Positions 2,063 through 64,000 of a stretch of DNA of 64,000 bases are shown one piece after another; the first letter of the stretch is position 1; each line of letters begins with the position of its first letter. This stretch comes from an uncultured Myxococcales bacterium (GTDB taxonomy: Bacteria > Myxococcota_A > Bradymonadia > UBA7976 > UBA1532). Position numbers and translations under genes: made by a program. The notes beneath the pieces were generated by a model. The model saw only the letters and a list, made by a program, of their open reading frames with translations. It made no database searches and was not told the DNA's origin. Location: assembly GCA_903847385.1 (NCBI GenBank), contig CAINDO010000561.1, positions 10,328 to 74,327 of the forward strand. Direction: 5' to 3'.

Positions 2063-2063
2063 C

Positions 2064-4556: not shown

Positions 4557-4609
4557 TGCCCCGAGCCACGGCGCGTATAAAGCGCCGGCCGCCCCGCCCC
4601 GAGAGTCCG

Positions 4610-5836: not shown

Positions 5837-5841
5837 CCGAC

Positions 5842-7764: not shown

Positions 7765-7787
7765 GTCGTCGTGCCGTCAGCAGACCG

Positions 7788-9716: not shown

Positions 9717-9754
9717 GGCGGCCGCCCGCGGGCCCTTGCCGGCCGGGGCCGCGC

Positions 9755-10378
9755 TCAGCCCCGGCGACCGTGCAGGGCCACGCTGTCGGCGAAACGCGCC
9801 GGGTCCTCGACCGCGTCGAAGGCGGCGAGCCCCGAGTCGCCGAGGCGGGCGGGCCGCACGTCCACGAAGCCCGCCGCGACGAGCTCCCGGGTCAGGCCCG
9901 GCTCGTCCCAAAGCCACAAGTGCGCGCCGTTGCCGAACAGCCGCGAGGCCAGGCCCTTCCAGCCCCGGTCTCCGCCCGCGCGCCCCAAGAGCGACTTCTG
10001 CATGAACTCCGAGCAGGCGTCCGGCGCGCCGCTCTCCAGATAGCGCTGTGCCAGCACCCGCAGGTCGGGCACCACCACGCGGAACACGCCCCCCGGCTGG
10101 AGCAGGCGCAGGCTGTTGCGCAGCGCCACGCGGGCGTCCGCCAGGGCCAGGTGCTCGACCACGTGCGAGGAGTACACCCCTGCGCAGCTCGCGTCCGGCA
10201 CGGGCAGACCGCGCACGATGTCGCCGTAGCGAACGGACGCGGGGAATCGGGCGGCGTTCTTCGTGTACAGCCGACCGACGACGGGCAGGCGTTCGAAGCG
10301 CAGCGTCGGGCTGGCGTCGTAGTTCTCCCAGCCCTCGGGCGCGCTCAGGCCGCAGCCATACTGAACAAAGCGGGACAT
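9755..10378 (-). CDS. class I SAM-dependent methyltransferase (type 11-like)
   Basis: 'MSRFVQYGCGLSAPEGWENYD' start at 10378; 'VVEHLALADARVALRNSLRLLQPGGVFRVVVPDL' methyltransferase-fold motifs. The track's upstream Arg-rich extension is rejected. Confidence 0.75.
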   Translation of the reverse strand: MSRFVQYGCGLSAPEGWENYDASPTLRFERLPVVGRLYTKNAARFPASVRYGDIVRGLPVPDASCAGVYSSHVVEHLALADARVALRNSLRLLQPGGVFRVVVPDLRVLAQRYLESGAPDACSEFMQKSLLGRAGGDRGWKGLASRLFGNGAHLWLWDEPGLTRELVAAGFVDVRPARLGDSGLAAFDAVEDPARFADSVALHGRRG

Positions 10379-10395
10379 GGGGCCTCGGGGGGCGC

Positions 10396-12606: not shown

Positions 12607-13928
12607 AGCTTCACCACCTTGGGGTTGTTCCGGCCCGCGCTCGCCGTCAGGTTGCGCGTGTCGACGATGCGGCGCGCGTGACGGAGGATCTGCTCGGGCT
12701 CGTAGTAGCGGTGATCGGTGACGATGACGACGACGTCGTAGGTCCCCATCTCCGCGTAGCTCAGGGGGCGGCTCTGCATCAGGCGGGCTTCCCCGCCGCC
12801 GTGGGCGAGGTCGATCTCGGGTACGAAGTTGTCCTGGTATTCCACCATCGCTCCCCGCGCGAGCAGGCCGTCGATGACCGGGATCGCCGGGGACTCACGC
12901 CAATCCGTGATGTCCCGCTTGTAGGAGACCCCGAGCACCAGGACCTTGGACCCCCGCAGAGGCCGCGCTTCGCCAACATTGTTGAGGGCGAGCGAAACAC
13001 GGTCGACCACGTAGTCGGGCATGTGGGAGTTGATGTCGTCCGCCAGCTCGATGAAGCGCGTGCGGTAGTTCAGCGTGCGCAGCTTCCAGCTCAGGTAGTG
13101 GGGATCGATGGGGATGCAGTGGCCACCCAGGCCCGGGCCCGGGTAGAACGGCATGAAGCCGAAGGGTTTGGTGGCCGCGGCCTCGATGATCTCCCACACG
13201 TCCAGGCCGAGCTTGTCCGCGATGATGGCGACCTCGTTCACCAGGCCGATGTTCACGGCGCGGAACGTGTTCTCCACCAGCTTGACCATCTCGGCGGCCG
13301 TGGGGCTCGACACCGCCACGACCTTGTCGCAGACCGTGGCGTACAGCGCGTGGGCGATGTCCGTGCAGGTGGGGGTCACGCCGCCGACGATCTTGGGCGT
13401 GTTCTTCACGTTGTAGACCGGGTTGCCCGGATCGATGCGCTCGGGGCTGAAGGCGAGGTGAATGTCCGTGCCGACCTTCAGGCCGGTGGACTCCAGCGCC
13501 GGCGCGACGATCTCGTCCGTCGTGCCCGGGTACGTGGTGCTCTCCAGGATCACGGCCTGACCCGAGCGCAGGTGCTTCACGATCCGCTCCGTGGCGGACA
13601 CGATGTAGCTGATGTCCGGGTCGCGCGTCTTGCGCAGGGGCGTGGGCACGCAGACGCTGATGGCGTCGCAGAGCGCCAGGTCGGCGAAGTCGGCCGTGGC
13701 CTTGAACTTGCCCGAGGCGACGAGGCGGGCGACGTCCTCGGCGGGCACGTCCAGGATGTAGGACTCGCCGGCGTTGAGCGCCTTCACCTTGGCGGGATCG
13801 ATTTCGAAGCCGATCACGGTGAAGCCCGCGTCGGCGAAGCCGGTGGCCAGCGGCAGGCCCACGTAACCGAGGCCGACGACGCCGACGACGGCGGTGCGCT
13901 GGGAGATGCGTTCGAGGATCGTGCTCAT
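12603..13928 (-). CDS. nucleotide-sugar dehydrogenase (UDP-GlcNAc/ManNAc/glucose 6-dehydrogenase family)
   Basis: 'VVGLGYVGLPLA' Rossmann motif, catalytic 'GGHCIPIDP', 441 aa. 4-bp overlap with wzc. Confidence 0.9.
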   Translation of the reverse strand: MSTILERISQRTAVVGVVGLGYVGLPLATGFADAGFTVIGFEIDPAKVKALNAGESYILDVPAEDVARLVASGKFKATADFADLALCDAISVCVPTPLRKTRDPDISYIVSATERIVKHLRSGQAVILESTTYPGTTDEIVAPALESTGLKVGTDIHLAFSPERIDPGNPVYNVKNTPKIVGGVTPTCTDIAHALYATVCDKVVAVSSPTAAEMVKLVENTFRAVNIGLVNEVAIIADKLGLDVWEIIEAAATKPFGFMPFYPGPGLGGHCIPIDPHYLSWKLRTLNYRTRFIELADDINSHMPDYVVDRVSLALNNVGEARPLRGSKVLVLGVSYKRDITDWRESPAIPVIDGLLARGAMVEYQDNFVPEIDLAHGGGEARLMQSRPLSYAEMGTYDVVVIVTDHRYYEPEQILRHARRIVDTRNLTASAGRNNPKVVKL

Positions 13929-13967
13929 GGAGCCCTTTCTGTCGCCGCGCGGGGCGGCGGAATCGGT

Positions 13968-14909
<942 letters not shown>

Positions 14910-14999
14910 TCGACTCCTCAGACCCCGATGCGTGCGGCGCTGTTTCAGCCGGGCACGTCGCGATTGCATCCGCCCGCGGGCCGGCGCCAGGATGCCCCC

Positions 15000-15983
15000 G
15001 TGAACTCCGAGAGCCTGCGCACCTGCCTGAGAGCGTTCGTCGACGGCGACCGCGCGCTGCCCGCCCTCGGAGCCGAGGACGTGGCCATGGCGTCGGCGCA
15101 CCGTCTGGCGGGCACCCTCTACCACATGCGGGTGCCGTTGGGCCACGCCGAGCGACAATCCGTGCAGCGAACCTGGGCGTCGCAGGCGGCGGCGTACCTG
15201 CAGCGCGTGGCGGTGCTGCGGGCGCAGTGGCCGTCGCGCGCGCCGGCCCCGTTGCTCTTCAAGGGCGCCGACCTCGTCGAGAATCTGTACGGCGATCCCG
15301 GCGCGCGGCGCATGTCCGACCTCGACCTGATGCTGCCCCCCGCCGACTTCGACGCGGTCGCGACGTCGCTCGCGGCCCGCGCGGAGGCCAGCAGCACGCC
15401 CCGGGGCGAGGCCTTCGAGGGCGAGGCGGCCTATGAAATGGGCCTGCGCTTCGGCGACGTCACGCTGGAACTCCACCGTGCGCCGCAGCCGCTCCATCGC
15501 GGGGGGCCGAGCGCGGACGCGCTGTACGCGGCGAGCACGCCGGGCACGCTGGACGGCCTCGCCGTGCGTTTCCCCGCGCCCGAGGACCGCTGGCTGCTGT
15601 GGCTGACCAACCAGGCCAAGGGGTCGTTCCAGGGCGACCTGGCCGATCTGCTCGACCTCTGCCTGATTCTGCGCGCCCTGCCCGCCCCCCTGCCCTGGAC
15701 GCGGCTGCTCGCCCGTGCGCGCGCCGCCGGTCTCTCCCGGCCTGCAAGGCTGGCCCTGCGGAGGCTGGCCCGCGCCGGTCTCTGGAGCGGACCGCTCCCT
15801 GCCGTCGGCGAGGTCTCGGATGCGCTTGCCGACCGTCTGCTGCCCCCGCCGGACGCGCCGGCACTGGACATGCCGGCCTGGCGGTTTCAGGGCCTCAAGC
15901 TCTGGCTGGCCGATCCGTCGCGGCGAGCGGGCGTCTTGGCCCGGGCCGGCGCGACGCTCTGGCGGCGGCTGGACGCGCGCTGA
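15000..15983 (+). CDS. putative nucleotidyltransferase-family protein (uncharacterised NTase, PF14907-like)
   Basis: Real-looking 3' third of the artefactual 1101-aa track ORF. 'FKGADLVENLYGDPGARRMSDLDLMLPP' resembles the uncharacterised-nucleotidyltransferase family. The GTG 15000 start is uncertain (ATG 15087 is an alternative). Confidence 0.5.
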   Translation: MNSESLRTCLRAFVDGDRALPALGAEDVAMASAHRLAGTLYHMRVPLGHAERQSVQRTWASQAAAYLQRVAVLRAQWPSRAPAPLLFKGADLVENLYGDPGARRMSDLDLMLPPADFDAVATSLAARAEASSTPRGEAFEGEAAYEMGLRFGDVTLELHRAPQPLHRGGPSADALYAASTPGTLDGLAVRFPAPEDRWLLWLTNQAKGSFQGDLADLLDLCLILRALPAPLPWTRLLARARAAGLSRPARLALRRLARAGLWSGPLPAVGEVSDALADRLLPPPDAPALDMPAWRFQGLKLWLADPSRRAGVLARAGATLWRRLDAR

Positions 15984-16003
15984 CGCCCCGAGCGTTCAGG
16001 CGC

Positions 16004-50438: not shown

Positions 50439-51206
50439 TCACGACGGTCGCCCCGCGCCGCCCTCGTCGTCCACGCCGGCCACGGGCCATGCCCGGGTGC
50501 CACCGGCGATCACGACCCCGGCGAACGGCAGATCGACCAGGCGCGCGGCGGCCAGAATCCGCTCGGCGGCCTCGATCTCGCGTTTCTGCGGCGCGCCGCC
50601 GGGCCGGACGCCGACCAACCACCAGGCACCTTCACCGGGGACCGCGAGCAGGCGGGCCAGCACGGCCCCCGCCCGGGTGTCGCTGCCCAGCGCGGAGCCC
50701 AGGGCGAGCGTCACCGGGCTCTCGGGCCGCTCCAGCCGGAACGCCAGCAGCGCGCGCTCTCCGATGGCCACCTGACCGCGCATCGCCTCGGCCACCTGAC
50801 GCCAGAGCGGCTGCGGCGCCTCGGTCGGCGTCGACGTGGGTGGCGGCGGCGTCTCGGCCGTCGCCCCGGTCGCCGCCCTCTGCCCCCCGCCCCGCCGTCC
50901 GAGCTCGAAGGCCGCGGCGATGCGCGTGGCTTTGACCGGCCCGACGCCATCCAGCCCCACCAACGCGGGCAGGTCGGCCCGGGCCAGGTGGGCCAGTCCA
51001 CCGTTCTCCCGCAAGAGCCGCTGGGCCAGCCCCAGGGCGTCCTCCCCGCTCCCGCGCCCGGTGCCCAGCACGACGGCCAGCAGCTCGGCGTCCTGCACGG
51101 CCGCGGTCCCCAGCGTCAACATGCGCTCCCGCGGTCGCTCGGACACGGGCATCTCCATCAGTCTCATCGTGACCTCCATCGTCGGTTGTGCGACGGAGAA
51201 CTTCAC
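50439..51206 (-). CDS. RadC-like (UPF0758) protein with HhH N-domain and degenerate JAB/MPN domain
   Basis: 'MPVSERPRERMLTLGTAAVQDAELLAVVLGTGRGSGEDALGLAQRLL...LVGLDGVGPVKATRIAAAFELGRR' RadC N-terminal domain. C-terminal region aligns to the JAMM core but 'HNHPSG' is replaced by 'GVRPGG'. Start codon uncertain (several Met near the N-terminus). Confidence 0.65.
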   Translation of the reverse strand: MKFSVAQPTMEVTMRLMEMPVSERPRERMLTLGTAAVQDAELLAVVLGTGRGSGEDALGLAQRLLRENGGLAHLARADLPALVGLDGVGPVKATRIAAAFELGRRGGGQRAATGATAETPPPPTSTPTEAPQPLWRQVAEAMRGQVAIGERALLAFRLERPESPVTLALGSALGSDTRAGAVLARLLAVPGEGAWWLVGVRPGGAPQKREIEAAERILAAARLVDLPFAGVVIAGGTRAWPVAGVDDEGGAGRPS

Positions 51207-51326
51207 GACTCATGCCGCGGAGATTCATCAACAGATTCGAGCACTTGGCTCGGCGAACCGGTGCGCGGGCGTCCAGAATCGCACCAACGGGTGTCCAGAT
51301 TCGCACCACCGCGCACCAGCACCCGG

Positions 51327-51757
51327 TCACCCGAGCAGGTACTCCGCGGCGGGCAAGAGCGCCGTGCGCGCCCAGTAGCGGGCGAACTGCTCGACGGCGG
51401 CGGGGGCCACGTCCGGCGGCAGCGCGACGACGTTGGCCACGCCGAGGCCATGGCAGATGGTGACGGCGTCCGGATCGTCCGGATGCCCGACCACCACCCG
51501 CGGCACGCAGCGCCACACCGGCGCCCGTTCGAGGAGACGGAGCAGCGCCCAGTCGTCGGCGCGCGCCGCCTCGACGGGCACCACCAGCAACTGCGGCAGG
51601 CCCCGAACCTCGGGCATCGCGCCCGTTCGGCGCCAGGTGTCCGCCTGCGCCTCGGCGACGAGCTCGACCGCCATGCCGTGCGAGGCGAGCTGGGCGGTCA
51701 GCGGGGCGCGCCAGGGCGCGGCCTCGGCCGCGATCAACCAGGTCGTTCGACCCGCGC

Positions 51758-51761
<4 letters not shown>
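51327..51761 (-). CDS. hypothetical protein, possible degenerate receiver-like (pseudo-REC) domain
   Basis: 144 aa. ATGA overlap with the pilin gene stop. Alternating beta/alpha hydrophobic pattern ('TWLIAAEAA', '[19 protein letters not shown]', '[10 protein letters not shown]') reminiscent of the CheY fold, without the canonical DD...D...T...K residues. Confidence 0.4.
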
Positions 51762-52342
<581 letters not shown>

Positions 52343-52400
52343 TGCGTCACTCCTTGCCGCCCCCGTTCAGCGGCACCGATTTCATTGCACGACCGGAGAC

Positions 52401-52420
52401 TCAGCAAACCGCATGCCAAC
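52401..52420 (-). promoter_or_regulatory. sigma54 (-24/-12) promoter upstream of pilA
   Basis: Minus-strand 5'-TTGGCATGCGGTTTGCTG-3' = TGGCAtG-N4-TTGCt, with exact consensus spacing. ~60 nt upstream of the pilA ATG. A sigma54 enhancer-binding protein (pilR) is encoded in the window. Confidence 0.6.
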
Positions 52421-52543
52421 CGCAGCCTCCAGCGTCCTCCCCCTCGACTCGATTTCAAATGCGGGGAACGCTTGAGGTTTTTCCACAGTGGGCCGTTCGC
52501 GTCTCCCGTTTCTCACGTCGGAAAGTAACAAGTTTTGCGAGGG

Positions 52544-52560
52544 GTGACAATTCTTGTCAC
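52544..52560. promoter_or_regulatory. perfect 7-3-7 palindrome GTGACAA-ttc-TTGTCAC, ~140 bp upstream of the sigma54 -12 element (candidate enhancer/UAS)
   Basis: Exact inverted repeat. The distance is typical for bEBP upstream activator sites. Contains TGTC half-sites. Confidence 0.3.
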
Positions 52561-52591
52561 ATCAAAAAAAAACATCACCACTGCAACGGGC

Positions 52592-52619
52592 AAAAAAAAG
52601 GCCGACCCGAAGGCCGGCC
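52592..52619 (-). terminator. Rho-independent terminator downstream of the OM beta-barrel gene
   Basis: Minus-strand RNA GGCCGGCC-UUCG-GGUCGGCC (8-bp stem with one G-U, UUCG tetraloop) followed by U8. Lies 35 nt after the stop at 52655. Confidence 0.65.
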
Positions 52620-52654
52620 CCCTGCGCGCGCGCCCCGTCAGGGCGCGCCGTGGC

Positions 52655-53293
52655 TCACCACCAGAACGTCGCGCCGATCCCGGCAAACTGATCGAAGACG
52701 CCGAACTGCGAGGTCTTCTTCGGGAGGCCCCCGGCGACGGGCCCGCTGTCGGTGCCGGCGGCGGCGATGGCCTCGGCGCTGACCTCGGGCTGCGGGGTGG
52801 GCTGCTTGCCCGCAAAGACGTTGCCGTCGTCACTGGCGAGCGCGAAGCGGATGCCGGACTCGAAGTGGAAGGAGAAGTGCTCGTCGGCGAACCAGTAGAG
52901 GCGGATCGGCAGGTCGAACGCGATGGAGGTCGCGTTCTTGGTCTGCGGGTTGCCGCTGGAGTCCGGCTTGTCCTGGACCGTGGTCAGGCCGAAGTTGAAG
53001 CGACCGCCGGCCGACAGCGCGGCCTTCTCGGCCCGAAGCGCGAAGAAGTGCGCGCCGAGGCCGAGGTCGAAGTTCGTGAAGGCGTCGCCCTTGTCCGGGT
53101 TGGTCACGCTGAAGCCGAGACCGCCCTCGATGACCAGGTTGCCGACGCCGTAGCCGAAGGCCGCGTTGGCGTTGCCGCCCGCGATGGGCGCCGAGATGGA
53201 GATCCCCTTCTTGCCGTCCACCAGATCGCTGGCCTGGGCCGCGCCGGCCGCGAGCGCCGTGACCACGCCGGCCACCACACCGAGATGCTTCAT
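52655..53293 (-). CDS. small outer-membrane beta-barrel protein (OmpA-like TM / OMP_b-brl family)
   Basis: ATG 53293 with GAGGAG SD. Signal peptide 'MKHLGVVAGVVTALAAGAAQA'. Alternating aromatic/Gly beta-strands, C-terminal '...GIGATFWW'. Confidence 0.7.
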   Translation of the reverse strand: MKHLGVVAGVVTALAAGAAQASDLVDGKKGISISAPIAGGNANAAFGYGVGNLVIEGGLGFSVTNPDKGDAFTNFDLGLGAHFFALRAEKAALSAGGRFNFGLTTVQDKPDSSGNPQTKNATSIAFDLPIRLYWFADEHFSFHFESGIRFALASDDGNVFAGKQPTPQPEVSAEAIAAAGTDSGPVAGGLPKKTSQFGVFDQFAGIGATFWW

Positions 53294-53553
53294 CGTCCTG
53301 TTCTCCTCTTCGAGGGGCACACCCGTCGGGCGGGCGCCGCCGGTTCAGGGCAAAGGCCCGAAACATGACGCACAGCAGCCGACATCGACTGCAATGCACT
53401 ACATACCACCACAATGTAAGCGCAGCGGACGGACCGCGCAAATCTCCGCCCTTCTTTTTTTTTCGAACCGGCCGCCCCATCGACGCGCATCCATGGGAAA
53501 ATCGCCGCGACGCTCCCTCCCCGCCCGCAGACAGAAGAACACGCCCCCCCGAG

Positions 53554-54531
53554 ATGGAGATCCTTCGACACTTTCGCGATCTCGCGCCCGCCCAGGCCGG
53601 CACGGCGCTCACGATCGGCAACTTCGACGGCGTCCACCGCGGCCATCGCGCCCTGGTCGCCCGCGTCAAGGCCGCCGCCGAGGCGCGCGGTCTCTCGGCC
53701 GGCGTGCTGACGTTCGAGCCGCACCCGGCCCGATTCCTGGGCGGCCGCGCGCCGCCGCCCCTGCTCTCGACGCGCGCGGACAAGCGGCGCCTCCTCGCCG
53801 GCCTCGGCGTCGACTTCCTGATCGAGCAACCGTTCGACGCCGACTGGGCGAGCCTGACCCCGGAGCGGTTCGTGTCCGAGGTCCTGCTCGAGGGCCTCCG
53901 CTGTCGTCACCTCGTGGTCGGCTACGACTTCGTATTCGGCGCGCGGCGTGCGGGCACCGTGGACACGCTGCGCATCGCCGCCGACGCCCACGGCTTCACC
54001 GTCGAGGTCGTCTCCGCGCTGGCGCCCGAGGGACAGGCCGTGGCCTCGAGTTCGCGCATTCGCGCCGCGGTGCAGGCGGGCGAGTTCCCCGTGGCGACGA
54101 CGCTGCTGGGGCGTCCGTATCATTTACATGGCCGCGTGGTCGCCGGAGCGCAACGCGGGCGCCAGATCGGGTTCCCCACCGCGAACCTGCAGGGTGACAA
54201 CGAGCTGCTGCCCCCGCCCGGGGTCTACGCGGGCTGGCTGGACTGGGGCGAGGGCCAGCGCGCCGCCGCGATCAGCGTGGGTGACAATCCCACCTTCGGC
54301 GACACCGGCTTCACCGTCGAGGCCCACGTGCTGGCCGAGGCCATCGCGCCCGGCGCGGACCTCTACGGCCGGGAGTGCCACCTCTCGTTCGCCGCGCGGC
54401 TGCGCGGAATGATCCGGTTCTCGGGCCCGAACGCCCTGGCGGACCTCATCGCGGCCATCGGCGCCGACGTGGAGGCCACTCGGGCCCTGCTCGCCACGCT
54501 CTCCCCACCCCCGTCGCTGCTCGGTCCGTGA
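53554..54531 (+). CDS. ribF: bifunctional riboflavin kinase / FAD synthetase
   Basis: 'GNFDGVHRGHRAL' (H/G-x-G-H), 'GRPY...G.V..G...GR..GFPTAN' riboflavin kinase motifs. ATG 53554 preferred over the track's upstream start. Confidence 0.9.
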   Translation: MEILRHFRDLAPAQAGTALTIGNFDGVHRGHRALVARVKAAAEARGLSAGVLTFEPHPARFLGGRAPPPLLSTRADKRRLLAGLGVDFLIEQPFDADWASLTPERFVSEVLLEGLRCRHLVVGYDFVFGARRAGTVDTLRIAADAHGFTVEVVSALAPEGQAVASSSRIRAAVQAGEFPVATTLLGRPYHLHGRVVAGAQRGRQIGFPTANLQGDNELLPPPGVYAGWLDWGEGQRAAAISVGDNPTFGDTGFTVEAHVLAEAIAPGADLYGRECHLSFAARLRGMIRFSGPNALADLIAAIGADVEATRALLATLSPPPSLLGP

Positions 54532-55385
54532 CCCCCGGCCCGCCGCGCTGGCGCTTCGCGCTCGTGGGCTCCCCCGTGGCCCACAGCCGATCGCCGGACC
54601 TCTTCGCCGCGCTCGCGGCCGGCGCGGGGACGACCTGCGACTACACCCTCGCGGACATCTCCGGCCCGGCCCTCGACGCCTGGTGGTCCGGCCCGGCCCG
54701 GGAGCTGCACGGGTTCAATGTCACGGTTCCCCACAAGACGACGGCCGCGGCCCGCTGCACCGCGCTCAGCGGGCCGGCCGCGCGGATCGGCGCCGTCAAC
54801 GCCGTGCGCCTGGAGCCCGACCGGGGCACGACCGGCACGAACACGGACGCGGCCGGTTTCGATCTGACCCTCGGCGACGCCGCGTTCGAGCGCGCGGTCG
54901 TCCTCGGCGCGGGCGGCGCCGCGAGGGCCGTCGTGGACGTGCTGCTCGGCCGGGGTGTGGCTCGGGTCCGCCTGGTGAACCGGTCCCCCGCGCGCGCCGC
55001 CGAGCTCGTCGCGTCCCGGTCGGCTTCCGAGCGTGCGCGCGTCTCGACGACGCCCTGGTCACACCTCGCCGACGCGCTCGATGGTGCGGATCTCGTCGTC
55101 CAGACCACTTCGGCGGCGCTGTCGGCGCCCGAGGCCCTCGCCACGCTCCCCTGGGAAAGCACGACCGCCAGCGCCCTCGCCGTGGATCTCGTCTACCGCC
55201 CGCGGCGCACCGCCTTCCTGCTCGGCGCCGCGCGGGGCGGTCGCCGGACCGCGGACGGTCTGACCATGCTGGCCGGTCAGGCCGCCGCCGCGTTCGACTT
55301 CTTCCGGGGCGTCGAATCGGACCCGCAGGTGTTCTCCGGGGTCGCCCGCGGGCTGGCCGACAGTCTCCGCGCGGGCGTCGATTGA
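54528..55385 (+). CDS. aroE: shikimate dehydrogenase
   Basis: 'FALVGSPVAHSRSPDLF', 'GFNVTVPHK', 'GAGGAARAV'. GTG 54528 overlaps the ribF stop. Confidence 0.85.
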   Translation: MTPGPPRWRFALVGSPVAHSRSPDLFAALAAGAGTTCDYTLADISGPALDAWWSGPARELHGFNVTVPHKTTAAARCTALSGPAARIGAVNAVRLEPDRGTTGTNTDAAGFDLTLGDAAFERAVVLGAGGAARAVVDVLLGRGVARVRLVNRSPARAAELVASRSASERARVSTTPWSHLADALDGADLVVQTTSAALSAPEALATLPWESTTASALAVDLVYRPRRTAFLLGAARGGRRTADGLTMLAGQAAAAFDFFRGVESDPQVFSGVARGLADSLRAGVD

Positions 55386-55460
55386 CACCCGGCGCAGCGC
55401 CTCCTTATATAGCGGCTACGCCGCAAAGCGCTCCCCCGCTCCGTCAGCACAGAGAGGCCC

Positions 55461-57158
55461 ATGTCCGACCATCGTCTCGGCGAGCTCCTGATTCGAGAGA
55501 ACCTGATCACCCTCGTCCAGCTCAAGGACGCGGATGAGACGCGACGCAAGACGGGCGAGAAGCTCGGCTACACGCTGACCAAGCTGGGATTCATCGGCGA
55601 GCGCGAGCTCACGAGCTTCCTGAGCAAGCAGTACGGCGTCCCCTCGATCAACCTGAACGAGTTCGAGATCGACGCGGAGGTCATCAAGCTGATCCCGCGC
55701 GAGATGGCGCAGCAACATCAGGTCATCCCGGTGCAGCGCGCCGGCAACGCCCTGATCGTCGCCATGGCCGATCCGTCGAACCTCCACGCCATCGACGACG
55801 TGAAGTTCCTCACGGGCTACAACATCGAGCCCGTCGTCGCGAGCGAGGAGGCCATCCGCAACGCCATCGAGCGGTACTACTCGCAGAAGTCCAACATCGC
55901 CGCGTTGATGGAGGAGTTCAGCGAAGAGGACGTCGAGGTCGCCGAGCAGGAGCAGGACGAGGACGTCCTCGACCTCGAGCGCTCCAGCGAGGAGGCCCCC
56001 GTCGTCCGCCTCGTGAACATGGTCCTCGTCGAGGCCATCAAGCGCGGCGCCTCCGACATCCACATCGAGCCCTACGAGAAGTCGTTCCGCGTCCGCTACC
56101 GCATCGACGGCGTGCTCTACGAGATCCTCAACCCGCCGATGAAGCTGCGCAACGCGATCATCAGCCGCGTGAAGATCATGTCCAACATGGACATCGCCGA
56201 GCGCCGCCTCCCGCAGGACGGCCGCATCAAGATCAAGCTCGGCGGCGGCCGCGAGATGGACTTCCGCGTCAGCGTGATGCCCACGCTGTTCGGCGAGAAG
56301 ATCGTGTTGCGTCTGCTCGACAAGGGCAACCTGCAGCTCGACATGACGAAGCTCGGCTTCGAGGAGCACACCCTCAGCCGCTTCAAAGAGGCCATTCACA
56401 AGCCCTACGGCATGGTGCTCGTCACCGGCCCCACGGGCTCCGGCAAGACGACGACGCTGTACTCGGCCCTCTCCGAGCTCAACAAGACGAGCGAGAACAT
56501 CTCGACCGCCGAGGATCCCGTGGAGTTCAACCTCCCCGGCATCAACCAGTGTCAGATGAACGACTCGATCGGCCTGAACTTCGCCGCCGCGCTCCGCTGC
56601 TTCCTGCGGCAGGACCCCGACATCATCATGGTGGGCGAGATCCGCGACTTCGAGACGGCGGAAATCGGCGTCAAGGCCGCCTTGACGGGCCACTTGGTGC
56701 TCTCGACGCTCCACACGAACGACGCGCCGTCCACGGTGCATCGTCTCCTGAACATGGGCGTCGAGCCCTTTCTCGTCACGGCCTCGGTGAACGCCATCGT
56801 CGCCCAGCGTCTGGCCCGCAAGATCTGCAACGAGTGCAAAGAGGTCCTGAAGCTGCCCCCCCAGGCGCTCATCGATCTCGGGGTGCCGCCGGACCGGGCC
56901 GCCAAGGCCACCGTGTACAAGGGCAACGGCTGCCGCAACTGCAACGACACCGGCTACAAGGGCCGCGTGGCGCTTTACGAGGTCATGGTGCTCGACGACG
57001 AGCTCAAGGACTTCATCCTCCAGGGTGTCTCGAGCGTCGAGCTCAAGCGCGAGGCCGTGCGCCTCGGCATGAAGACGCTGCGTCAGGCCGCTTTGACCAA
57101 GCTGCTCGATGGCGTCACCACCACCGCCGAGGTCGTCCGAAACTCCGCCGCCGACTGA
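55461..57158 (+). CDS. pilB: type IV pilus assembly ATPase PilB (GspE family, N-terminal MshEN/T2SSE_N domain)
   Basis: Walker A 'GPTGSGKTTT', Asp box, His box. Tetracysteine 'CNECKE...CRNCNDTGYKGR'. Confidence 0.95.
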   Translation: MSDHRLGELLIRENLITLVQLKDADETRRKTGEKLGYTLTKLGFIGERELTSFLSKQYGVPSINLNEFEIDAEVIKLIPREMAQQHQVIPVQRAGNALIVAMADPSNLHAIDDVKFLTGYNIEPVVASEEAIRNAIERYYSQKSNIAALMEEFSEEDVEVAEQEQDEDVLDLERSSEEAPVVRLVNMVLVEAIKRGASDIHIEPYEKSFRVRYRIDGVLYEILNPPMKLRNAIISRVKIMSNMDIAERRLPQDGRIKIKLGGGREMDFRVSVMPTLFGEKIVLRLLDKGNLQLDMTKLGFEEHTLSRFKEAIHKPYGMVLVTGPTGSGKTTTLYSALSELNKTSENISTAEDPVEFNLPGINQCQMNDSIGLNFAAALRCFLRQDPDIIMVGEIRDFETAEIGVKAALTGHLVLSTLHTNDAPSTVHRLLNMGVEPFLVTASVNAIVAQRLARKICNECKEVLKLPPQALIDLGVPPDRAAKATVYKGNGCRNCNDTGYKGRVALYEVMVLDDELKDFILQGVSSVELKREAVRLGMKTLRQAALTKLLDGVTTTAEVVRNSAAD

Positions 57159-57165
57159 GTCCTCC

Positions 57166-58248
57166 ATGGCCAATCTGCACCAGCTCCTGAAGGTCATGGT
57201 CGAGAAGGGGGCGAGCGACCTGCACATCACGTGCGGCTCCCCGCCCCAGCTCCGGATCGATGGCCACCTCATCCCCCTCAAGACGCCGCCCCTGAGCCGC
57301 GAGGACACGCAGCAGCTCTGCTACTCGTTCCTCACGGAGTCGCAGAAGCACAAGTTCGAGGAGACCAACGAGCTCGACCTCAGCTTCGGCGTGAAGGGCA
57401 TGAGCCGATTCCGCGCGAACCTGTTCATGCAGCGCGGCGCCGTGTCGGCCACGTTCCGAGTCATCCCGATGAAGATCCACACGTTCGAGGAGCTCGGACT
57501 CCCGAACACCATCGGCGACATGACCAACAAGACCAAGGGTCTCATCCTGGTCACGGGCCCCACGGGCTCCGGCAAGTCCACCACGCTCGCCGCGATGGTG
57601 GACAAGATCAACGCCGAGAAGCACTACCACATCCTCACCATCGAGGACCCGATCGAGTACCTGCATCCCCACAAGAGCTCGATCGTGAACCAGCGCGAGA
57701 TCGGCAGCGACACGGTCGATTTCAAGACCGCGCTGAAGTACGTGCTACGCCAGGATCCGGACGTGGTGCTGGTGGGCGAGATGCGCGACCTCGAGACGGT
57801 CGAGGCCGCCCTGACCATCAGCGAGACGGGCCACTTGTGCATGGCCACGCTGCACACGAACGGCGCCGTGCAGGCGATCAACCGCATCATCGACCTCTTC
57901 CCGCCCCACCAGCAGGGACAGATCCGGTCGCAGTTGAGCTTCACGCTCGAGGCCGTCGTCGCGCAGCAGCTCATCATGCGCTCCTCCGGTGTGGGCCGGG
58001 TGCTGGCCTGCGAGGTCATGATCCCCACGCCGGCCATTCGCAATCTCATCCGCGAGGACAAGATCCACCAGATCTACAGCCAGATGCAGGTCGGCCAGAC
58101 CCGCTTCGGCATGCAGACCATGAATCAGTCCCTCCTGGGCCTGTACCAGCGGGGCGAGATCACGCTCGAGGACGCGCTGGCTCACTCCAACGACGTCGAC
58201 GAGATGCGCACCATGATCGCCGGCGGAAACACGGCCAGCGCGCGCTGA
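57166..58248 (+). CDS. pilT: type IV pilus retraction ATPase PilT
   Basis: 'MANLHQLLKVMVEKGASDLHI', Walker A 'GPTGSGKSTT', 'AIRNLIRE' PilT motif. 361 aa. Confidence 0.95.
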   Translation: MANLHQLLKVMVEKGASDLHITCGSPPQLRIDGHLIPLKTPPLSREDTQQLCYSFLTESQKHKFEETNELDLSFGVKGMSRFRANLFMQRGAVSATFRVIPMKIHTFEELGLPNTIGDMTNKTKGLILVTGPTGSGKSTTLAAMVDKINAEKHYHILTIEDPIEYLHPHKSSIVNQREIGSDTVDFKTALKYVLRQDPDVVLVGEMRDLETVEAALTISETGHLCMATLHTNGAVQAINRIIDLFPPHQQGQIRSQLSFTLEAVVAQQLIMRSSGVGRVLACEVMIPTPAIRNLIREDKIHQIYSQMQVGQTRFGMQTMNQSLLGLYQRGEITLEDALAHSNDVDEMRTMIAGGNTASAR

Positions 58249-58264
58249 GCGAGATCCCCGACCG

Positions 58265-59923
58265 ATGATCAAGGCATTCAACGCGTGGCCCGAGTGGGCC
58301 CGGTACGGGTTCGTCTTCGCTTTCGCGCTGCTGTTCTGGAGCCCCAGCCTCTTCAACGAGTTCGCCTGGGACGACACGAACAACCTCGTCGACTCGGACC
58401 GACTGCGCGGCTGGGCCGCGTTCGCCGAGTGTTTCCGGCACGACGCGATGTGGTCCGCCCGAATGAACGCCGCGGCCATCGGCACCTACCGGCCGATCTC
58501 CCTGGCGTCGTTCGTCGTGGACTACCAGCTCTTCGGCGGCTCGGCGATCTCGTACCACTTCACCAGCCTGTTCTGGCACGCCCTGGCCTGCGTGGTGGTC
58601 TTCGCCGTGCTACGCCGCTTCATGGGGCTCGTCGAGTCGCTCGTTGCGACGTGCCTCTTCTGCGTCGTCCCCGTGAACGCCGAGGCCGTGGCCTGGGTGA
58701 ACGGCCGCTCCGAGATCTTCGCCCTGCTCTTCGGAGGTCTGGGCGTCGTCGTCGCCACGAGCCCGCGGCTGCCCTGGTTCGTGCGCCTCGCCGGCACCGC
58801 GCCCCTGCTGCTTCTGGGCATGCTCGGCAAGGAGACCGGGGTGATCTTCTGTGCCGTCGCCGTGCTGCTCGGCACCGAGGCGCGCCATCGCCGCGTCGAG
58901 GCGCCCCGTCTGTGGTTGCGCAGCCTGGACCTGACGGCGCTGCTCTCCGGCGTGCTCGCGCTGGCCGGTTACCTGTGGATCCGCCACCTGGTCTTCGGCG
59001 GCAATCCCCTCCCCGGCGCCACGGAGAAGCTCTCCAGCAGCGCCGACCTGATGGGCATCCTGGCGCAGGCCGCCTCGATCGTGTGGAAGTGTTTCGCCAC
59101 GGTGGTCATCCCCGATCGCATCTCCGTCGGCTACTTGTACAACTGGGCCCAGGCCCTGACGCGAACGGATCTGATCGTCGCCTGGAGCGCCCTCGCCGTC
59201 GTGGCGGCGGGGCTCGTGTTCGCCTGGCTGCGCGGTCATCGCCTCGCGATCCTGATGCTGGCGTGGTGGGGCTTCTCCATCGCGCCGGTGCTCATCCTGG
59301 TCGGGCGCGACTGGCCGGGGCTCGCGCGCTGGCTCTACATGGGCGGCCCGGGGCTCGTCGCCGCCGGCGCGCTGCTGCTGCGCCTCGTCCCGTGGCGCAC
59401 GGTCACGACCTTCGTCGGCGCGGCCTACGGCCTCGTCTGGTCCGTGCAGGCGCAGCGCAGCATCGAGGTCTGGCACGACTCGGGGACACTCTTCGAGCGC
59501 ATGATCATCGAGGAGCCGGGCGAGCGGTTCGGGTACCTGAGCCTCTCCTGGTATTACCTGCGCATCGCCGACTACCCCAACTCCGAGAAGATGGCGCGCA
59601 AGGTGCTCGAGCTCGGCCCGCGGGGCCACGATCCGCTGCCCTTCCTGGCGGCGGCGTTGGCCGCCCAGGACAAGTGCGACGAGGCCCGCAAGACCGTCTA
59701 TGAGCCGACGCCGATGCCGACACGCGCCGCCTGGATGATGTTCTCGGTGGGCGCCTGTTACGAGCGCGCCGGCCGACCGGCGGACGCCCTGCCGCTCTAC
59801 AAGGACTGCGTCGCTGGCGACAAGGCCTGCGAGTCGAAGGCCGCGACGCTGAGCGCGAGCCTGGCCAGCGCTGCCCCCGAGAGCGCCGAGCCGAGCGCGC
59901 CGGCGACGGTCGCACCTCGCTGA
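58265..59923 (+). CDS. GT-C fold membrane glycosyltransferase, PMT/TMTC(DUF1736)-like, with C-terminal TPR domain
   Basis: ~11 TM helices. N-terminal loop 'FNEFAWDDTNNLVDSD' (DD/DE-type motif of PMT/ArnT-like GT-C enzymes). C-terminal soluble TPR-like repeats ('YLSLSWYYLRIADYPNSEKMARKVLELGP...'). Confidence 0.7.
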   Translation: MIKAFNAWPEWARYGFVFAFALLFWSPSLFNEFAWDDTNNLVDSDRLRGWAAFAECFRHDAMWSARMNAAAIGTYRPISLASFVVDYQLFGGSAISYHFTSLFWHALACVVVFAVLRRFMGLVESLVATCLFCVVPVNAEAVAWVNGRSEIFALLFGGLGVVVATSPRLPWFVRLAGTAPLLLLGMLGKETGVIFCAVAVLLGTEARHRRVEAPRLWLRSLDLTALLSGVLALAGYLWIRHLVFGGNPLPGATEKLSSSADLMGILAQAASIVWKCFATVVIPDRISVGYLYNWAQALTRTDLIVAWSALAVVAAGLVFAWLRGHRLAILMLAWWGFSIAPVLILVGRDWPGLARWLYMGGPGLVAAGALLLRLVPWRTVTTFVGAAYGLVWSVQAQRSIEVWHDSGTLFERMIIEEPGERFGYLSLSWYYLRIADYPNSEKMARKVLELGPRGHDPLPFLAAALAAQDKCDEARKTVYEPTPMPTRAAWMMFSVGACYERAGRPADALPLYKDCVAGDKACESKAATLSASLASAAPESAEPSAPATVAPR

Positions 59924-60026
59924 ACGGCCGAATTCCGTCCCCCCCCAGGCCGCAGGTTGCGGTCCCCGATGCATGGGCATAACATCCCACGGGTTCGGTC
60001 GGGATCGGTCGGTGGAGGAGGAGCGC

Positions 60027-61235
<1,209 letters not shown>

Positions 61236-61247
61236 CGGCCGCCCAGC

Positions 61248-62978
61248 GTGTTCCGCCGCTCCTCCGACGCCCCGCCCGACCCCGCCCCTCCGGCCGTCCC
61301 CGAGATCGTCAGCAAGATCCAGTGGCTGATGTTCTTCCGGGTGATCATGGTCACCGTCCTGCTCGGGTCGACCCTGATCGTCAACGTCAAGGACGCCGAC
61401 CTGCTGTCGGATCCCGGGACCCTGACCGTCCTCGGGCTCATCGTCGGCACCTACCTGCTGACGATCGCCTACGCGCTGTTGCTCCCGCGGCTGAAGCAGC
61501 ACCGGCCGTTCGCGTACGTGCAGCTCGTCGGCGACCTGCTGACGTCGTTCGTGCTGATCCTCCTCACGGGGGGCGTGGAGAGCGTCTTCACGTTCATGTT
61601 CGCGCTCACCGTGATGAACGGCGCGATCCTGCTGTTCCGGCGCGGCGCGATCACGATGGCGCTGCTCTCCGCGGTGCTCATCGGCCTGATCGTCGTCCGC
61701 GACTGGGCGCACATGCCGGGGGCCGGCGCGTCGCCGAGCGCCAGCCGCGGCCTCGTGTTGTGGGCGATGACCAACGTGAGCGCGGTGCTCCTCGTGGCGC
61801 TGCTGGCCGGGTATCTCAGCGACCAGCTCAGCTTCGCCGGGCAGCGCATCCAATCGCAGAGCGAGGACCTGGAGCAGCTGCGAACGCTCAACCAGCACAT
61901 CATCACGAGCCTGCAGTCGGGGCTCGTCAGCCACACGCTCGACGGCCGGGTCATCTTCTTCAACCAGGCGGCGGAGCGCATCACCGGCCTCCGGGCGGAC
62001 GACGTCCTCTACCAGGACGTGCGCACGATCTTTCCGCGTCTCGAGCCCGACGCCCCGCCCGGCGGGGCGGCGGCCACGGGGCTGAACCGCTGGGAGGAGA
62101 CCTTCGAGACCCCCGACGGACAGGTGCGCATCCTGGGCATGAGCCGCTCTCCCCTGCTGGACTCGGGCGGCGCGAGCCGTGGCGCCGTCGTCGTGTTCCA
62201 GGACCTCACCCCGATGCGGACGCTGGAGCAGCAGATTCGACGCAGCGAGAAGTTCGCCGCCATCGGCAAGATGGCCGCGGGCATCGCCCACGAGATCCGC
62301 AACCCGCTCGCCAGCATCAGCGGCAGCATCCAGATGCTCAAGCGGGGCGCCAACCTGGAGAAGACCGACAGCCGACTGATGGAGATCGTCCTGCGTGAGG
62401 TCGAGCGCCTCAACGCGTTGATCACGGACTTCCTCCGATTCGCCCGGCCGGCGCCGCCACAGCTCGAACGCACGCACCTCGGCGCCCTGCTGAACGAGGT
62501 GATCGAGGTCTTCCGCTACATGCAGAGTCAGGGTGAGGGCGGTCCGCGCTACGACGTCGACCTGATGGTCGGAGACTCGGTCATCGTTCAGGCCGATCCC
62601 CGGCAGCTCAAACAGGTCGTCTGGAACCTCTTGAACAACGCCGTGGACGCCATGCCGAGCGGCGGCCTGATCCAGATGCAGGCCGTCGTGACCGGGACGT
62701 CCGGCGCCGACGACGACGGCGTCGAGCTGCGGCTGTCGGACACGGGGATCGGCATCACCGCCGAGAACCTGTCGCGCGTGTTCGACCCGTTCTTCAGCAC
62801 CAAACCACGCGGGAGCGGCCTCGGCCTCGCGCTCGTCCACCGGATCGTGGAGGAGCACGGCGGCACAATCCACGTGGAGAGCGAGCCGGGCAAGGGCACC
62901 ACCATGATCATCCGTTTCCCGGCCCCGGCGAACGCTCCGGTCATCCGGCAGCCGTCGCCCTCGGAGATGCTCACATGA
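61248..62978 (+). CDS. pilS: sensor histidine kinase PilS-like (polytopic membrane domain, PAS, HisKA, HATPase_c)
   Basis: Six N-terminal TM helices, PAS-like region, H-box 'AAGIAHEIRNPLASI', N/G boxes 'NLLNNAVDAM...DTGIGI...GSGLGLALVHRIV'. GTG 61248. Confidence 0.85.
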   Translation: MFRRSSDAPPDPAPPAVPEIVSKIQWLMFFRVIMVTVLLGSTLIVNVKDADLLSDPGTLTVLGLIVGTYLLTIAYALLLPRLKQHRPFAYVQLVGDLLTSFVLILLTGGVESVFTFMFALTVMNGAILLFRRGAITMALLSAVLIGLIVVRDWAHMPGAGASPSASRGLVLWAMTNVSAVLLVALLAGYLSDQLSFAGQRIQSQSEDLEQLRTLNQHIITSLQSGLVSHTLDGRVIFFNQAAERITGLRADDVLYQDVRTIFPRLEPDAPPGGAAATGLNRWEETFETPDGQVRILGMSRSPLLDSGGASRGAVVVFQDLTPMRTLEQQIRRSEKFAAIGKMAAGIAHEIRNPLASISGSIQMLKRGANLEKTDSRLMEIVLREVERLNALITDFLRFARPAPPQLERTHLGALLNEVIEVFRYMQSQGEGGPRYDVDLMVGDSVIVQADPRQLKQVVWNLLNNAVDAMPSGGLIQMQAVVTGTSGADDDGVELRLSDTGIGITAENLSRVFDPFFSTKPRGSGLGLALVHRIVEEHGGTIHVESEPGKGTTMIIRFPAPANAPVIRQPSPSEMLT

Positions 62979-64000
62979 GTCGAATCCTCGTCGTCGACGA
63001 CGAACTCTCGCTGCGGGAGATGCTCGAAATCTTCCTGAGCCAGGAGGGCCACGAGGTCCTCACGGCGGCCGACGGCGCCAAGGCCATCGCGATCCTGACG
63101 GAGGAGGACAACATCGACCTCGTCATCACGGATCTGCGCATGCCCGGCGCCCACGGGATGGTGGTGCTGGACCGCTGCCGCGAGCTGCACCCCAACACGC
63201 CCGTGGTGGTCATGACCGCCTTCGCATCCCATCAGACCGCCACCGAGGCGATGAAGATGGGGGCGTACGACTACTTCTCCAAACCGTTCGAGCTCGACGA
63301 GATCAACCAGACGGTGGAGCGAGCGCTGGAGCGGCGGCGCCTCGTCGTCGAGAGCCGGCGCCTGAAGGAGACGCTCCAGTCGGAGAGCGCGCTGCGGGCC
63401 ATCGTGGGCAACAGCCGCGCGATCCAGCAGGTGTTCGACATCGTGCGTCGCGTGGCCAAGACGCGCACCAACGTCCTCGTGCTCGGCGAAAGTGGCACCG
63501 GCAAGGAGCTCATCGCCCGGGCGCTCCACGACCAGAGCGAGCGACGCGGCGGGCCCTTCGTGGTCATCAACTGCGGCGCCGTGCCCGAGAACCTGCTCGA
63601 GTCGGAGTTCTTCGGCCACAAGCGCGGCTCGTTCACCGGCGCCAACACGGACAAAGAGGGCCTCTTCAAGGCGGCCAACGGCGGCACGCTGTTCCTCGAC
63701 GAGGTCGGCGAGCTCCCTCTGAGCATGCAGGTCAAGCTGTTGCGGGTGCTGCAAGAGCGTCGGGTGAAGCCCGTCGGCGACCTCCGCGAGATCCCCATCG
63801 ACGTCCGCGTCATCTCCGCCACGAACCGGAACCTCGAGGCCGAGGTCAAGGCCGGGCGATTCCGCGAGGACCTCTACTACCGGCTGAACGTGATCAGCGT
63901 GCAGTTGCCCGCGCTCCGCGACCGACCGGGGGACATCCCGCTGCTCGCCTACCACTTCCTGCGGCAATACGCGGAAGAGCAGGGCAAACACATCGCGGAC
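62975..64000 (+). CDS. pilR: sigma54-dependent response regulator PilR (NtrC family), 3'-truncated by window end
   Basis: REC 'ILVVDDE...DLVITDLRMPG'. AAA+ sigma54-interaction domain 'VLVLGESGTGKELIARALH', 'GAFTGA'-type 'GSFTGA', 'ESELFGH'-like 'ESEFFGH'. ATGA overlap with the pilS stop. Not in the ORF track because no stop codon falls before the window end. Confidence 0.9.
   Translation, partial: MSRILVVDDELSLREMLEIFLSQEGHEVLTAADGAKAIAILTEEDNIDLVITDLRMPGAHGMVVLDRCRELHPNTPVVVMTAFASHQTATEAMKMGAYDYFSKPFELDEINQTVERALERRRLVVESRRLKETLQSESALRAIVGNSRAIQQVFDIVRRVAKTRTNVLVLGESGTGKELIARALHDQSERRGGPFVVINCGAVPENLLESEFFGHKRGSFTGANTDKEGLFKAANGGTLFLDEVGELPLSMQVKLLRVLQERRVKPVGDLREIPIDVRVISATNRNLEAEVKAGRFREDLYYRLNVISVQLPALRDRPGDIPLLAYHFLRQYAEEQGKHIAD

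Follow-up and report, generated by a model that had tools for sequence, protein, structure and literature searches.

A predicted PilR box and sigma-54 promoter upstream of a type IV pilin gene unlinked from pilR in an uncultured member of the Myxococcota

How might a type IV pilin gene be controlled when it lies on the opposite strand from the genes of its presumed regulators, and several genes away from them? We considered this question for a stretch of 64,000 nt from an uncultured member of the Myxococcota (assembly GCA_903847385.1, contig CAINDO010000561.1, positions 10,328-74,327), hereafter called the window. On its minus strand, at 52342..51758, the window carries pilA, which encodes a type IVa major-pilin-like protein of 194 aa (Pfam N_methyl, 1.5e-9), and the 312-bp spacer 52343-52654 lies immediately upstream of this gene. 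A preliminary description of the locus had proposed that this spacer contains a sigma-54 promoter and an upstream palindrome that serves as an enhancer site for PilR. From the comparisons of sequences described below, we regard it as highly probable that the major type IV pilin gene is controlled from this spacer and that PilS/PilR and sigma-54 drive the expression of pilA.

Two elements, whose positions were read directly on the minus strand of the window, carry this reading. First, a sigma-54 (-24/-12) element, TGGCATGCGGTTTGCT, is located at 52418..52403 on the minus strand. It has one mismatch to TGGCACGNNNNTTGCW, a single C-to-T change relative to TGGCAC-N5-TTGCW, and its GG-N10-GC spacing is exact; no other sequence in the 64-kb window matches the consensus with one mismatch or fewer (0.39 expected over 128 kb, both strands). 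Because the C of the promoter GC is at 52404, 62 nt before the ATG, transcription is predicted to start at about 52392, which would give a 5′ untranslated region of about 50 nt. Promoters of this class are silent without an activator. Second, the sequence GTGACAAGAATTGTCAC, at 52560..52544, forms a perfect 7-3-7 palindrome of 17 bp, of the type GTGAC-N7-GTCAC, which we take as a predicted PilR box, or upstream activating sequence. This dyad begins 142 bp upstream of the start of the sigma-54 element, and 135 bp separate its centre from the -24 GG, a distance within the 80-200 bp expected of an NtrC-type enhancer. It is the sole exact GTGAC-N7-GTCAC in the window (0.05 expected), and in a position-weight-matrix scan of the 64 kb it scored 26.3 bits, the runner-up scoring 10.3. 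Both elements had been reported in the preliminary description, as a near-perfect -24/-12 element and an exact palindrome about 140 bp further upstream; the coordinates and sequences given there are correct, and the promoter element, with its one mismatch and exact spacing, also recurs at the same place in orthologous loci.

Which protein might recognize this dyad? We collected 159 pilin-gene loci from genome and metagenome collections (designated L001 and so on) and took the 91 pilin genes that have a sigma-54-like element upstream; most of the first metagenome matches, being the second or third gene of a pilin array, have no promoter of their own and were of limited use. An unbiased count of all 5-mer palindromes with spacers of 1-11 bp over these 91 promoters ranked four palindromes at the top, and all four are registers of one motif (GACAA-N3-TTGTC, GTGAC-N7-GTCAC, TGACG-N5-CGTCA and TGACA-N5-TGTCA), each of them 25- to 53-fold enriched. 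The exact sequence GTGAC-N7-GTCAC occurs 13 times in 1.47 Mb, and 11 of these occurrences fall within 260 nt upstream of a sigma-54-type pilin promoter, where 0.21 would be expected. When one mismatch is allowed, 41 of the 91 promoters have the box, at distances from 56 to 214 bp upstream (median about 125 bp), so that the distance of 142 bp in the window is typical. The owners of the box include Myxococcota, Bdellovibrio-like bacteria, Burkholderiales, Marinobacter and Acinetobacter. In seven loci (L002, L003, L008, L010, L019, L086 and L090), a short spacer separates pilR from the first pilin gene, and the box lies within it. The enrichment upstream of sigma-54-type pilin promoters and this placement in the pilR-pilin spacers support the earlier proposal that the palindrome is a PilR-type enhancer site. 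In a metagenome-assembled genome (MAG) of Pseudomonas sp. (L057, positions ~9680-9770), two tandem dyads with the same half-sites (GTGAC-N11-GTCAC/T) lie upstream of pilA, which suggests that the half-site specificity of PilR is conserved and that the spacing of the dimer depends on the lineage. Our literature search found no explicit statement of GTGAC-N7-GTCAC as a PilR box; the comparison of gene neighbourhoods nevertheless argues strongly for the assignment of the dyad to PilR. It is conceivable that the PilR operators found from Myxococcota to Beta- and Gammaproteobacteria go back to an ancestral GTGAC-N7-GTCAC, which is a simpler formulation than those published for Pseudomonas.

The presumed regulators are encoded in the same window. 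The pilS gene (61248-62978, plus strand) encodes a kinase with PF25323 6TM_PilS (45.3 bits, cut-off 27), PAS, HisKA and HATPase_c domains, and pilR (62975-64000, plus strand), which the end of the window cuts at residue 341, encodes an NtrC-family protein with Pfam Response_reg and Sigma54_activat (2.6e-74) domains. The two genes lie 8.9 kb and 10.6 kb from pilA, respectively, in agreement with the cognate PilS/PilR pair that the preliminary description had placed 9-11 kb away. The loop of this PilR that contacts sigma-54 reads GSFTGA, a variant of the GAFTGA-type loop that is also present in the products of pilR genes adjoining pilin genes in L003, L031 and L032. A database protein of 467 aa, named PilR by JGI (P0131), is 100% identical to the PilR of the window over 341 residues and carries HTH_8 at its end; its C-terminus, GGLKKEAARLLGITFRSLRYRLAKL, closely resembles those of the PilR proteins encoded beside box-bearing promoters.

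Could the promoter depend on sigma-54 while the dyad is bound by a different protein? It is possible in principle that another enhancer-binding protein of the NtrC family, or an unrelated dimeric regulator, occupies the dyad in place of the PilR encoded at 62975, and we consider this improbable. Myxobacteria encode dozens of NtrC-like regulators (PMC6211767), and Myxococcota are rich in such paralogues; the recognition helix of the PilR in question is encoded beyond the end of the window, and HTH_8 helices of the FRSLRYRL type need not be confined to PilR. In M. xanthus, NmpR also feeds into pilA expression, though via the pilR promoter and a GCGCA-N5-TGCGC box (PMC11841059). Three observations point instead to PilR. 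The seven loci with the same box between pilR and a pilin gene are unrelated to one another; among the box-bearing pilin genes, which extend from Myxococcota to Beta- and Gammaproteobacteria, PilS/PilR is the common neighbour; and there is no gene for a further enhancer-binding protein near pilA in the window.

How firmly, then, do the two elements belong together? Neither the dyad nor the sigma-54 element is significant alone when the whole window is considered: sigma-54 matches with one mismatch or fewer appeared in 35 of 100 shuffles of the window. By our rough arithmetic, the probability that chance would place both elements, in order, within a 312-bp spacer before a pilin gene is about 2e-7. 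Comparison with orthologous loci bears on this question directly. Uncultured Myxococcota have a large family of orthologues of the pilin of the window, and we obtained DNA for ten further lineages, which together with the window make eleven syntenic lineages; two orthologue loci were available as gene maps only. The common gene order is aroE-ribF / outer-membrane-protein-like (OMP-like) gene, pilA, an open reading frame (ORF) of about 145 aa that is not always present, a radC-like gene, ftsJ and UDPGP. Six lineages (the window, L001, L162, L168, L174 and L175) retain both elements, and the pilins of the five others among them are 60-79% identical to that of the window. In these five, the dyad is either identical to that of the window (L001 and L162) or has at most one mismatch to GTGAC-N7-GTCAC (L168, L174 and L175), and in all six a GG-N10-GC element precedes the start codon by 72-80 nt. 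When the six are aligned (A2), the invariant columns are concentrated on the dyad, on an A-tract just after it and on the -24/-12 element, and the remainder of the spacer can hardly be aligned.

In the other five lineages (L160, L161, L165, L170/172 and L176/177), both elements have decayed within a homologous stretch that is still recognizable, and no correctly spaced -24/-12 element is left (L160 has GG-N9-GC). In none of the eleven lineages was one element seen without the other. In a neighbour-joining tree of the pilins, the five element-less lineages fall in three separate places, and therefore the elements have been lost jointly at least three times independently. The clustering of invariant columns, together with the joint retention and joint loss, is thus the pattern expected of one functional unit. 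We also observed that the spacers upstream of pilA are shorter in L160, L161, L165, L170-173 and L176-179.

These data bear on a second alternative, namely that both motifs are non-functional, as products of chance or as relics, and that pilA is driven by an unrecognized promoter of the sigma-70 or extracytoplasmic function (ECF) type. The weakness of each motif when judged singly, and the existence of five orthologous lineages that keep the pilin gene without either of them, speak for this explanation. Yet the motifs hold fixed positions in six lineages while the remaining spacer diverges, they disappear only as a pair, and the dyad, an exact copy, ranks first among the motifs of pilin promoters in general; moreover, a consensus scan of 51500-53500 gave no match to a sigma-70 promoter for pilA. 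The conservation data make a chance origin of the two elements untenable, and we judge the alternative as a whole to be very unlikely. The least credible possibility is that the dyad chiefly serves as a negative operator, by which unphosphorylated PilR or a repressor would tune an otherwise constitutive promoter: the activator requirement of sigma-54 promoters is an established mechanism, a site 135 bp upstream of the -24 position suits activation by looping and not occlusion, and the spread of distances from 56 to 214 bp matches that of enhancers, all of which outweighs the direct binding by which Lysobacter PilR represses lchD (PMC8035640) and the reported regulation of Geobacter pilA by unphosphorylated PilR (Hernandez-Eligio 2017, as cited in PMC7962754).

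Control by PilR acting at the dyad and sigma-54 acting at the -24/-12 element therefore remains our preferred reading, and the alignments (A1 and A2) reveal a further feature of the spacer that may contribute to it. A second conserved block, consisting of an A-tract and TTGTTAC (TCGCAAAACTTGTTAC, 52540..52525, minus strand), lies 12 nt after the box, and its TTGTTAC begins at a fixed 19 bp after the right half-site TTGTCAC. The block occurs at the same offset in the window, L001, L160, L162, L165 and L175. Locus L007 contains three full boxes spaced 19-20 bp apart, and because of this spacing TTGTTAC may be a weak extra half-site for PilR that aids the assembly of an oligomer; alternatively, the block may be a DNA-bending element. 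In L160 and L165, the A-tract and TTGTTA(C/G) are retained despite the decay of the box, and therefore the block possibly has a function of its own.

Some observations weigh against our reading. By the position weight matrix, no second full PilR site above 2 bits is present in the spacer, and the TTGTTAC block also scores below 2. NtrC-type activators usually use two or more sites. A search for integration host factor (IHF) sites, with the E. coli consensus WATCAANNNNTTR and up to two mismatches, found no match between 52544 and 52418; the sole match, at 52386..52374, is downstream of the promoter. An IHF site is optional for this class of promoter, being found in many of its members and not in all. 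The DNA-binding domain of PilR lies outside the window, and its HTH_8 was read only in the database protein P0131. The 64-kb window contains no rpoN gene, and its presence in the genome is taken from general knowledge of Myxococcota. Finally, since five orthologous lineages do without both elements, pilA can be expressed in other ways.

From the sequence we infer the following course of events, in which the binding of the box by PilR, the dependence on sigma-54, the start site and the co-transcription of the downstream ORF are all predictions. Sigma-54 RNA polymerase would be held as a closed complex on the -24/-12 element at 52418..52403. The membrane kinase PilS would phosphorylate PilR, which would bind the 17-bp dyad at 52560..52544 as a dimer and would probably nucleate a hexamer there, perhaps aided by the A-tract/TTGTTAC block. 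A loop in the DNA would then allow the AAA+ domain of PilR to touch sigma-54 via its GSFTGA loop, and the hydrolysis of ATP would open the promoter. Transcription starting near 52392 would yield an mRNA with a 50-nt leader that covers pilA and, most likely, the overlapping ORF for a receiver-like protein of 144 aa. The products of pilS and pilR would act in trans, from genes 9-11 kb away.

Is the gene behind this promoter a major pilin gene? Its product starts with MRGNLKTRG|, in which a KTRG motif marks the type IV prepilin leader, followed by the N-terminal helix. Its best match among solved structures is 8tj2_C, 'Type IV major pilin protein PilA', over residues 10-177 (168 residues, E = 1.5e-12). 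Against the NCBIfam equivalog typeIV_PilA_Myxo it scored 67.8 bits, below the cut-off of 400, and it therefore falls outside this narrow group. When the window was scanned for the motif of prepilin N-termini, only that of pilA was found, and pilA is thus its sole pilin gene. A ribosome-binding site, AAGGAG, was read directly at 52355..52350 on the minus strand, 7 nt before the ATG. The GC content falls from about 0.70 outside the spacer to 0.52-0.61 across it, as expected of non-coding DNA. The fold of the pilA leader RNA is unremarkable (z = -1.2), and Rfam gave nothing above threshold in 51500-53500; the sub-threshold matches all lie on the terminator hairpins of the upstream gene.

That upstream gene, the OMP-like gene (52655-53320, minus strand), encodes a protein with a signal peptide and a C-terminal FWW, and has no match in Pfam or NCBIfam. 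It is closed by a GC-rich hairpin that resembles an intrinsic terminator, GGGGGCCGGCC-TTCG-GGTCGGCCTTT followed by eight T's (52592..52622, minus strand), which was recognized from the RNA fold and the sequence and was not listed by a simple terminator scan. An equivalent hairpin with a T-run is present in L160, L161, L162, L165, L170, L175 and L176, and the hairpin should insulate pilA from read-through of the OMP-like gene. The palindrome of the dyad itself was considered as a terminator and ruled out: its arms are 7 bp long and AT-rich, no T-run follows, and the true terminator hairpin lies 32 nt upstream. The OMP-like gene is located directly upstream of pilA in every locus of this clade (L001, 9191-9778; L160-L179), and a functional tie to the pilus is possible. 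We also found an OMP-like gene preceding a pilin gene in a distant metagenome contig of low GC content (L088, 2298-2711).

What else might this promoter control? Downstream of pilA, at 51761..51327 on the minus strand, an ORF of 144 aa begins with a GTG that overlaps the TGA stop codon of pilA (GTGA), and because of this overlap the two genes probably share a transcript. A 396-aa ORF at 50632..51822 was also considered as the gene downstream of pilA and was rejected as a wrong-frame artefact rich in Arg, Ala and Gly, the real gene being the 144-aa ORF in another frame. The 144-aa product has no Pfam or NCBIfam match and only ten relatives among 5.8 billion proteins. Its gene follows pilA in most of the syntenic loci and is absent in L161, L170-173 and L176-179. 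An AlphaFold2 model (predicted local distance difference test, pLDDT, 81) has a (beta-alpha)5 fold, and the structures that Foldseek matched best to it are CheY-like receivers, among them that of FrzS, a motility protein of M. xanthus (2i6f). The conserved phospho-acceptor Asp is missing at the end of beta3, where Pro or Ser is found and the next residues vary. Since this residue is lacking in a CheY-like fold, the modelled protein would be a pseudo-receiver. We speculate, with considerable reservation, that the sigma-54/PilR promoter drives pilA together with a translationally coupled, clade-restricted pseudo-receiver. This protein could in turn influence PilS/PilR, for instance by serving as a decoy for the PilS kinase, or it could target the pilus motor, much as the pseudo-receiver of FrzS does in the motility of M. 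xanthus. If this is true, the autoregulation of the pilin level would gain a second, protein-based arm.

The remaining pil genes of the window lie on the plus strand. Beyond the OMP-like gene come ribF (53365-54531) and aroE (54375-55385), followed by pilB (55461-57158), pilT (57109-58248), a gene for a tetratricopeptide repeat (TPR) protein (58265-59923), pilC (59973-61235), pilS and pilR, all identified by Pfam. The layout accordingly agrees with the earlier account, in which pilA is on the opposite strand and is parted from pilB-pilR by the OMP-like gene, ribF and aroE. In a Nannocystaceae MAG (L001, 5940-7340), the TPR-protein gene separates aroE from pilB, whereas the window has it between pilT and pilC, and this shift is a local rearrangement within an otherwise syntenic pil cluster. 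At 55382-55411 (plus strand), right at the aroE stop codon and 50 nt before pilB, we noted a look-alike of a sigma-70-type promoter for the genes from pilB and pilT to pilR (TTGACA, 17-18 nt, TTATATA), which did not pass the -10 filter of the scan. A polysaccharide-type cluster occupies 1824-16000 at the left end of the window and includes genes for a Wzy_C O-antigen-ligase-like protein, an asparagine synthase, a Wzz/GNVR co-polymerase of the tyrosine-kinase type, a UDP-glucose dehydrogenase and an epimerase; three large TPR proteins are encoded after it, at 20.3-27.4 kb. Together with obg, gatA/B, glmS, a glmU-like gene and uvrD, the polysaccharide cluster makes up what is otherwise ordinary chromosome.

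What does this locus add to the understanding of pilin regulation? The control of pilin genes by sigma-54 and PilR is already known, and our results leave the understanding of type IV pilin regulation unchanged. They provide a regulatory annotation for this genome, namely control of the pilin by PilS/PilR and sigma-54 although pilA is unlinked from pilR, with exact coordinates for the predicted enhancer, promoter and start. They also provide a simple, searchable predicted PilR box, GTGAC-N7-GTCAC with inner bases R-W5-Y, that recurs before pilin genes in several phyla. In addition, the joint gain or loss of enhancer and promoter in closely related lineages offers a clean small example of regulatory turnover.

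How does the locus compare with systems that are already known? The closest is that of M. xanthus, in which pilA depends on sigma-54 and PilR (Wu & Kaiser 1997, as cited in PMC6211767). The two organisms share a phylum, a type IVa major pilin with a -24/-12 pilA promoter, and an NtrC-type PilR encoded in a pilB-pilT-pilC-pilS-pilR cluster with ribF beside pilB (PMC6060248). In M. xanthus, however, pilA is directly downstream of pilR, whereas in the window the two genes lie 10.6 kb apart on opposite strands, pilA being set behind aroE, ribF and the OMP-like gene and followed by the pseudo-receiver ORF. In our literature search, we met no description of a PilR binding site in M. xanthus.

In P. 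aeruginosa, pilA is likewise controlled by sigma-54 and PilS/PilR, and PilR binds upstream of the promoter (PMC6058289). The PilR site of this species is given as TGT-N11-ACA in one account (PMC8035640, citing Jin, Ishimoto & Lory 1994), and as NifA-like TGT-N11-AGA together with GTCT elements in another (PMC6058289, citing Jin et al. 1994). The likeness to our locus extends to the half-sites TGTCAC/GTGACA, which are found upstream of pilA in the Pseudomonas MAG L057. In that MAG, the dyads are tandem and of the N11 type, whereas the window has a single N7 dyad. In Pseudomonas, moreover, pilA is divergent from pilB.

The pilA gene of G. sulfurreducens depends on RpoN and PilR, and its start has been mapped by rapid amplification of cDNA ends (5′-RACE) (PMC2725144). 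It resembles the gene of the window in having a PilR-activated promoter of the RpoN type, and ribF is again beside pilB (PMC6060248). In contrast, pilA of Geobacter is directly downstream of pilR and encodes a short geopilin, and the production of its PilA reportedly requires IHF (PMC7962754), whereas at our locus no match to the IHF consensus was found between box and promoter. In commensal Neisseria, pilE is controlled by RpoN, Npa/Nps, an upstream activating sequence and IHF (PMC6528607). The activating sequence for a PilR-like regulator, the sigma-54 promoter and the pilin gene are all shared with our locus, but the defined IHF site that Neisseria has between the activating sequence and the promoter has no recognizable counterpart. 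The major pilin of Kingella is also among those known to be controlled by sigma-54 and PilR (PMC6211767, PMC6058289, PMC2725144, PMC6528607).

In more general terms, regulators of the NtrC type bind 5-N5-5 dyads, such as the NmpR box GCGCA-N5-TGCGC (PMC11841059). The dyad of the window is similar in kind, with half-sites of 5-6 bp that are 5-7 bp apart, an overall length of 17 bp and a location about 100-150 bp upstream of a -24/-12 element. NmpR and NtrC differ in using at least two sites 10-15 bp apart, in place of the one perfect site and the half-site-like block found here. The gene order allows a last comparison. According to the survey by Sharma et al., pilB is not linked to ribF in Nannocystineae or Sorangiineae (PMC6060248). 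Both in the window and in the Nannocystaceae MAG L001, ribF and aroE directly precede pilB, an arrangement like that of Cystobacterineae and Geobacter.

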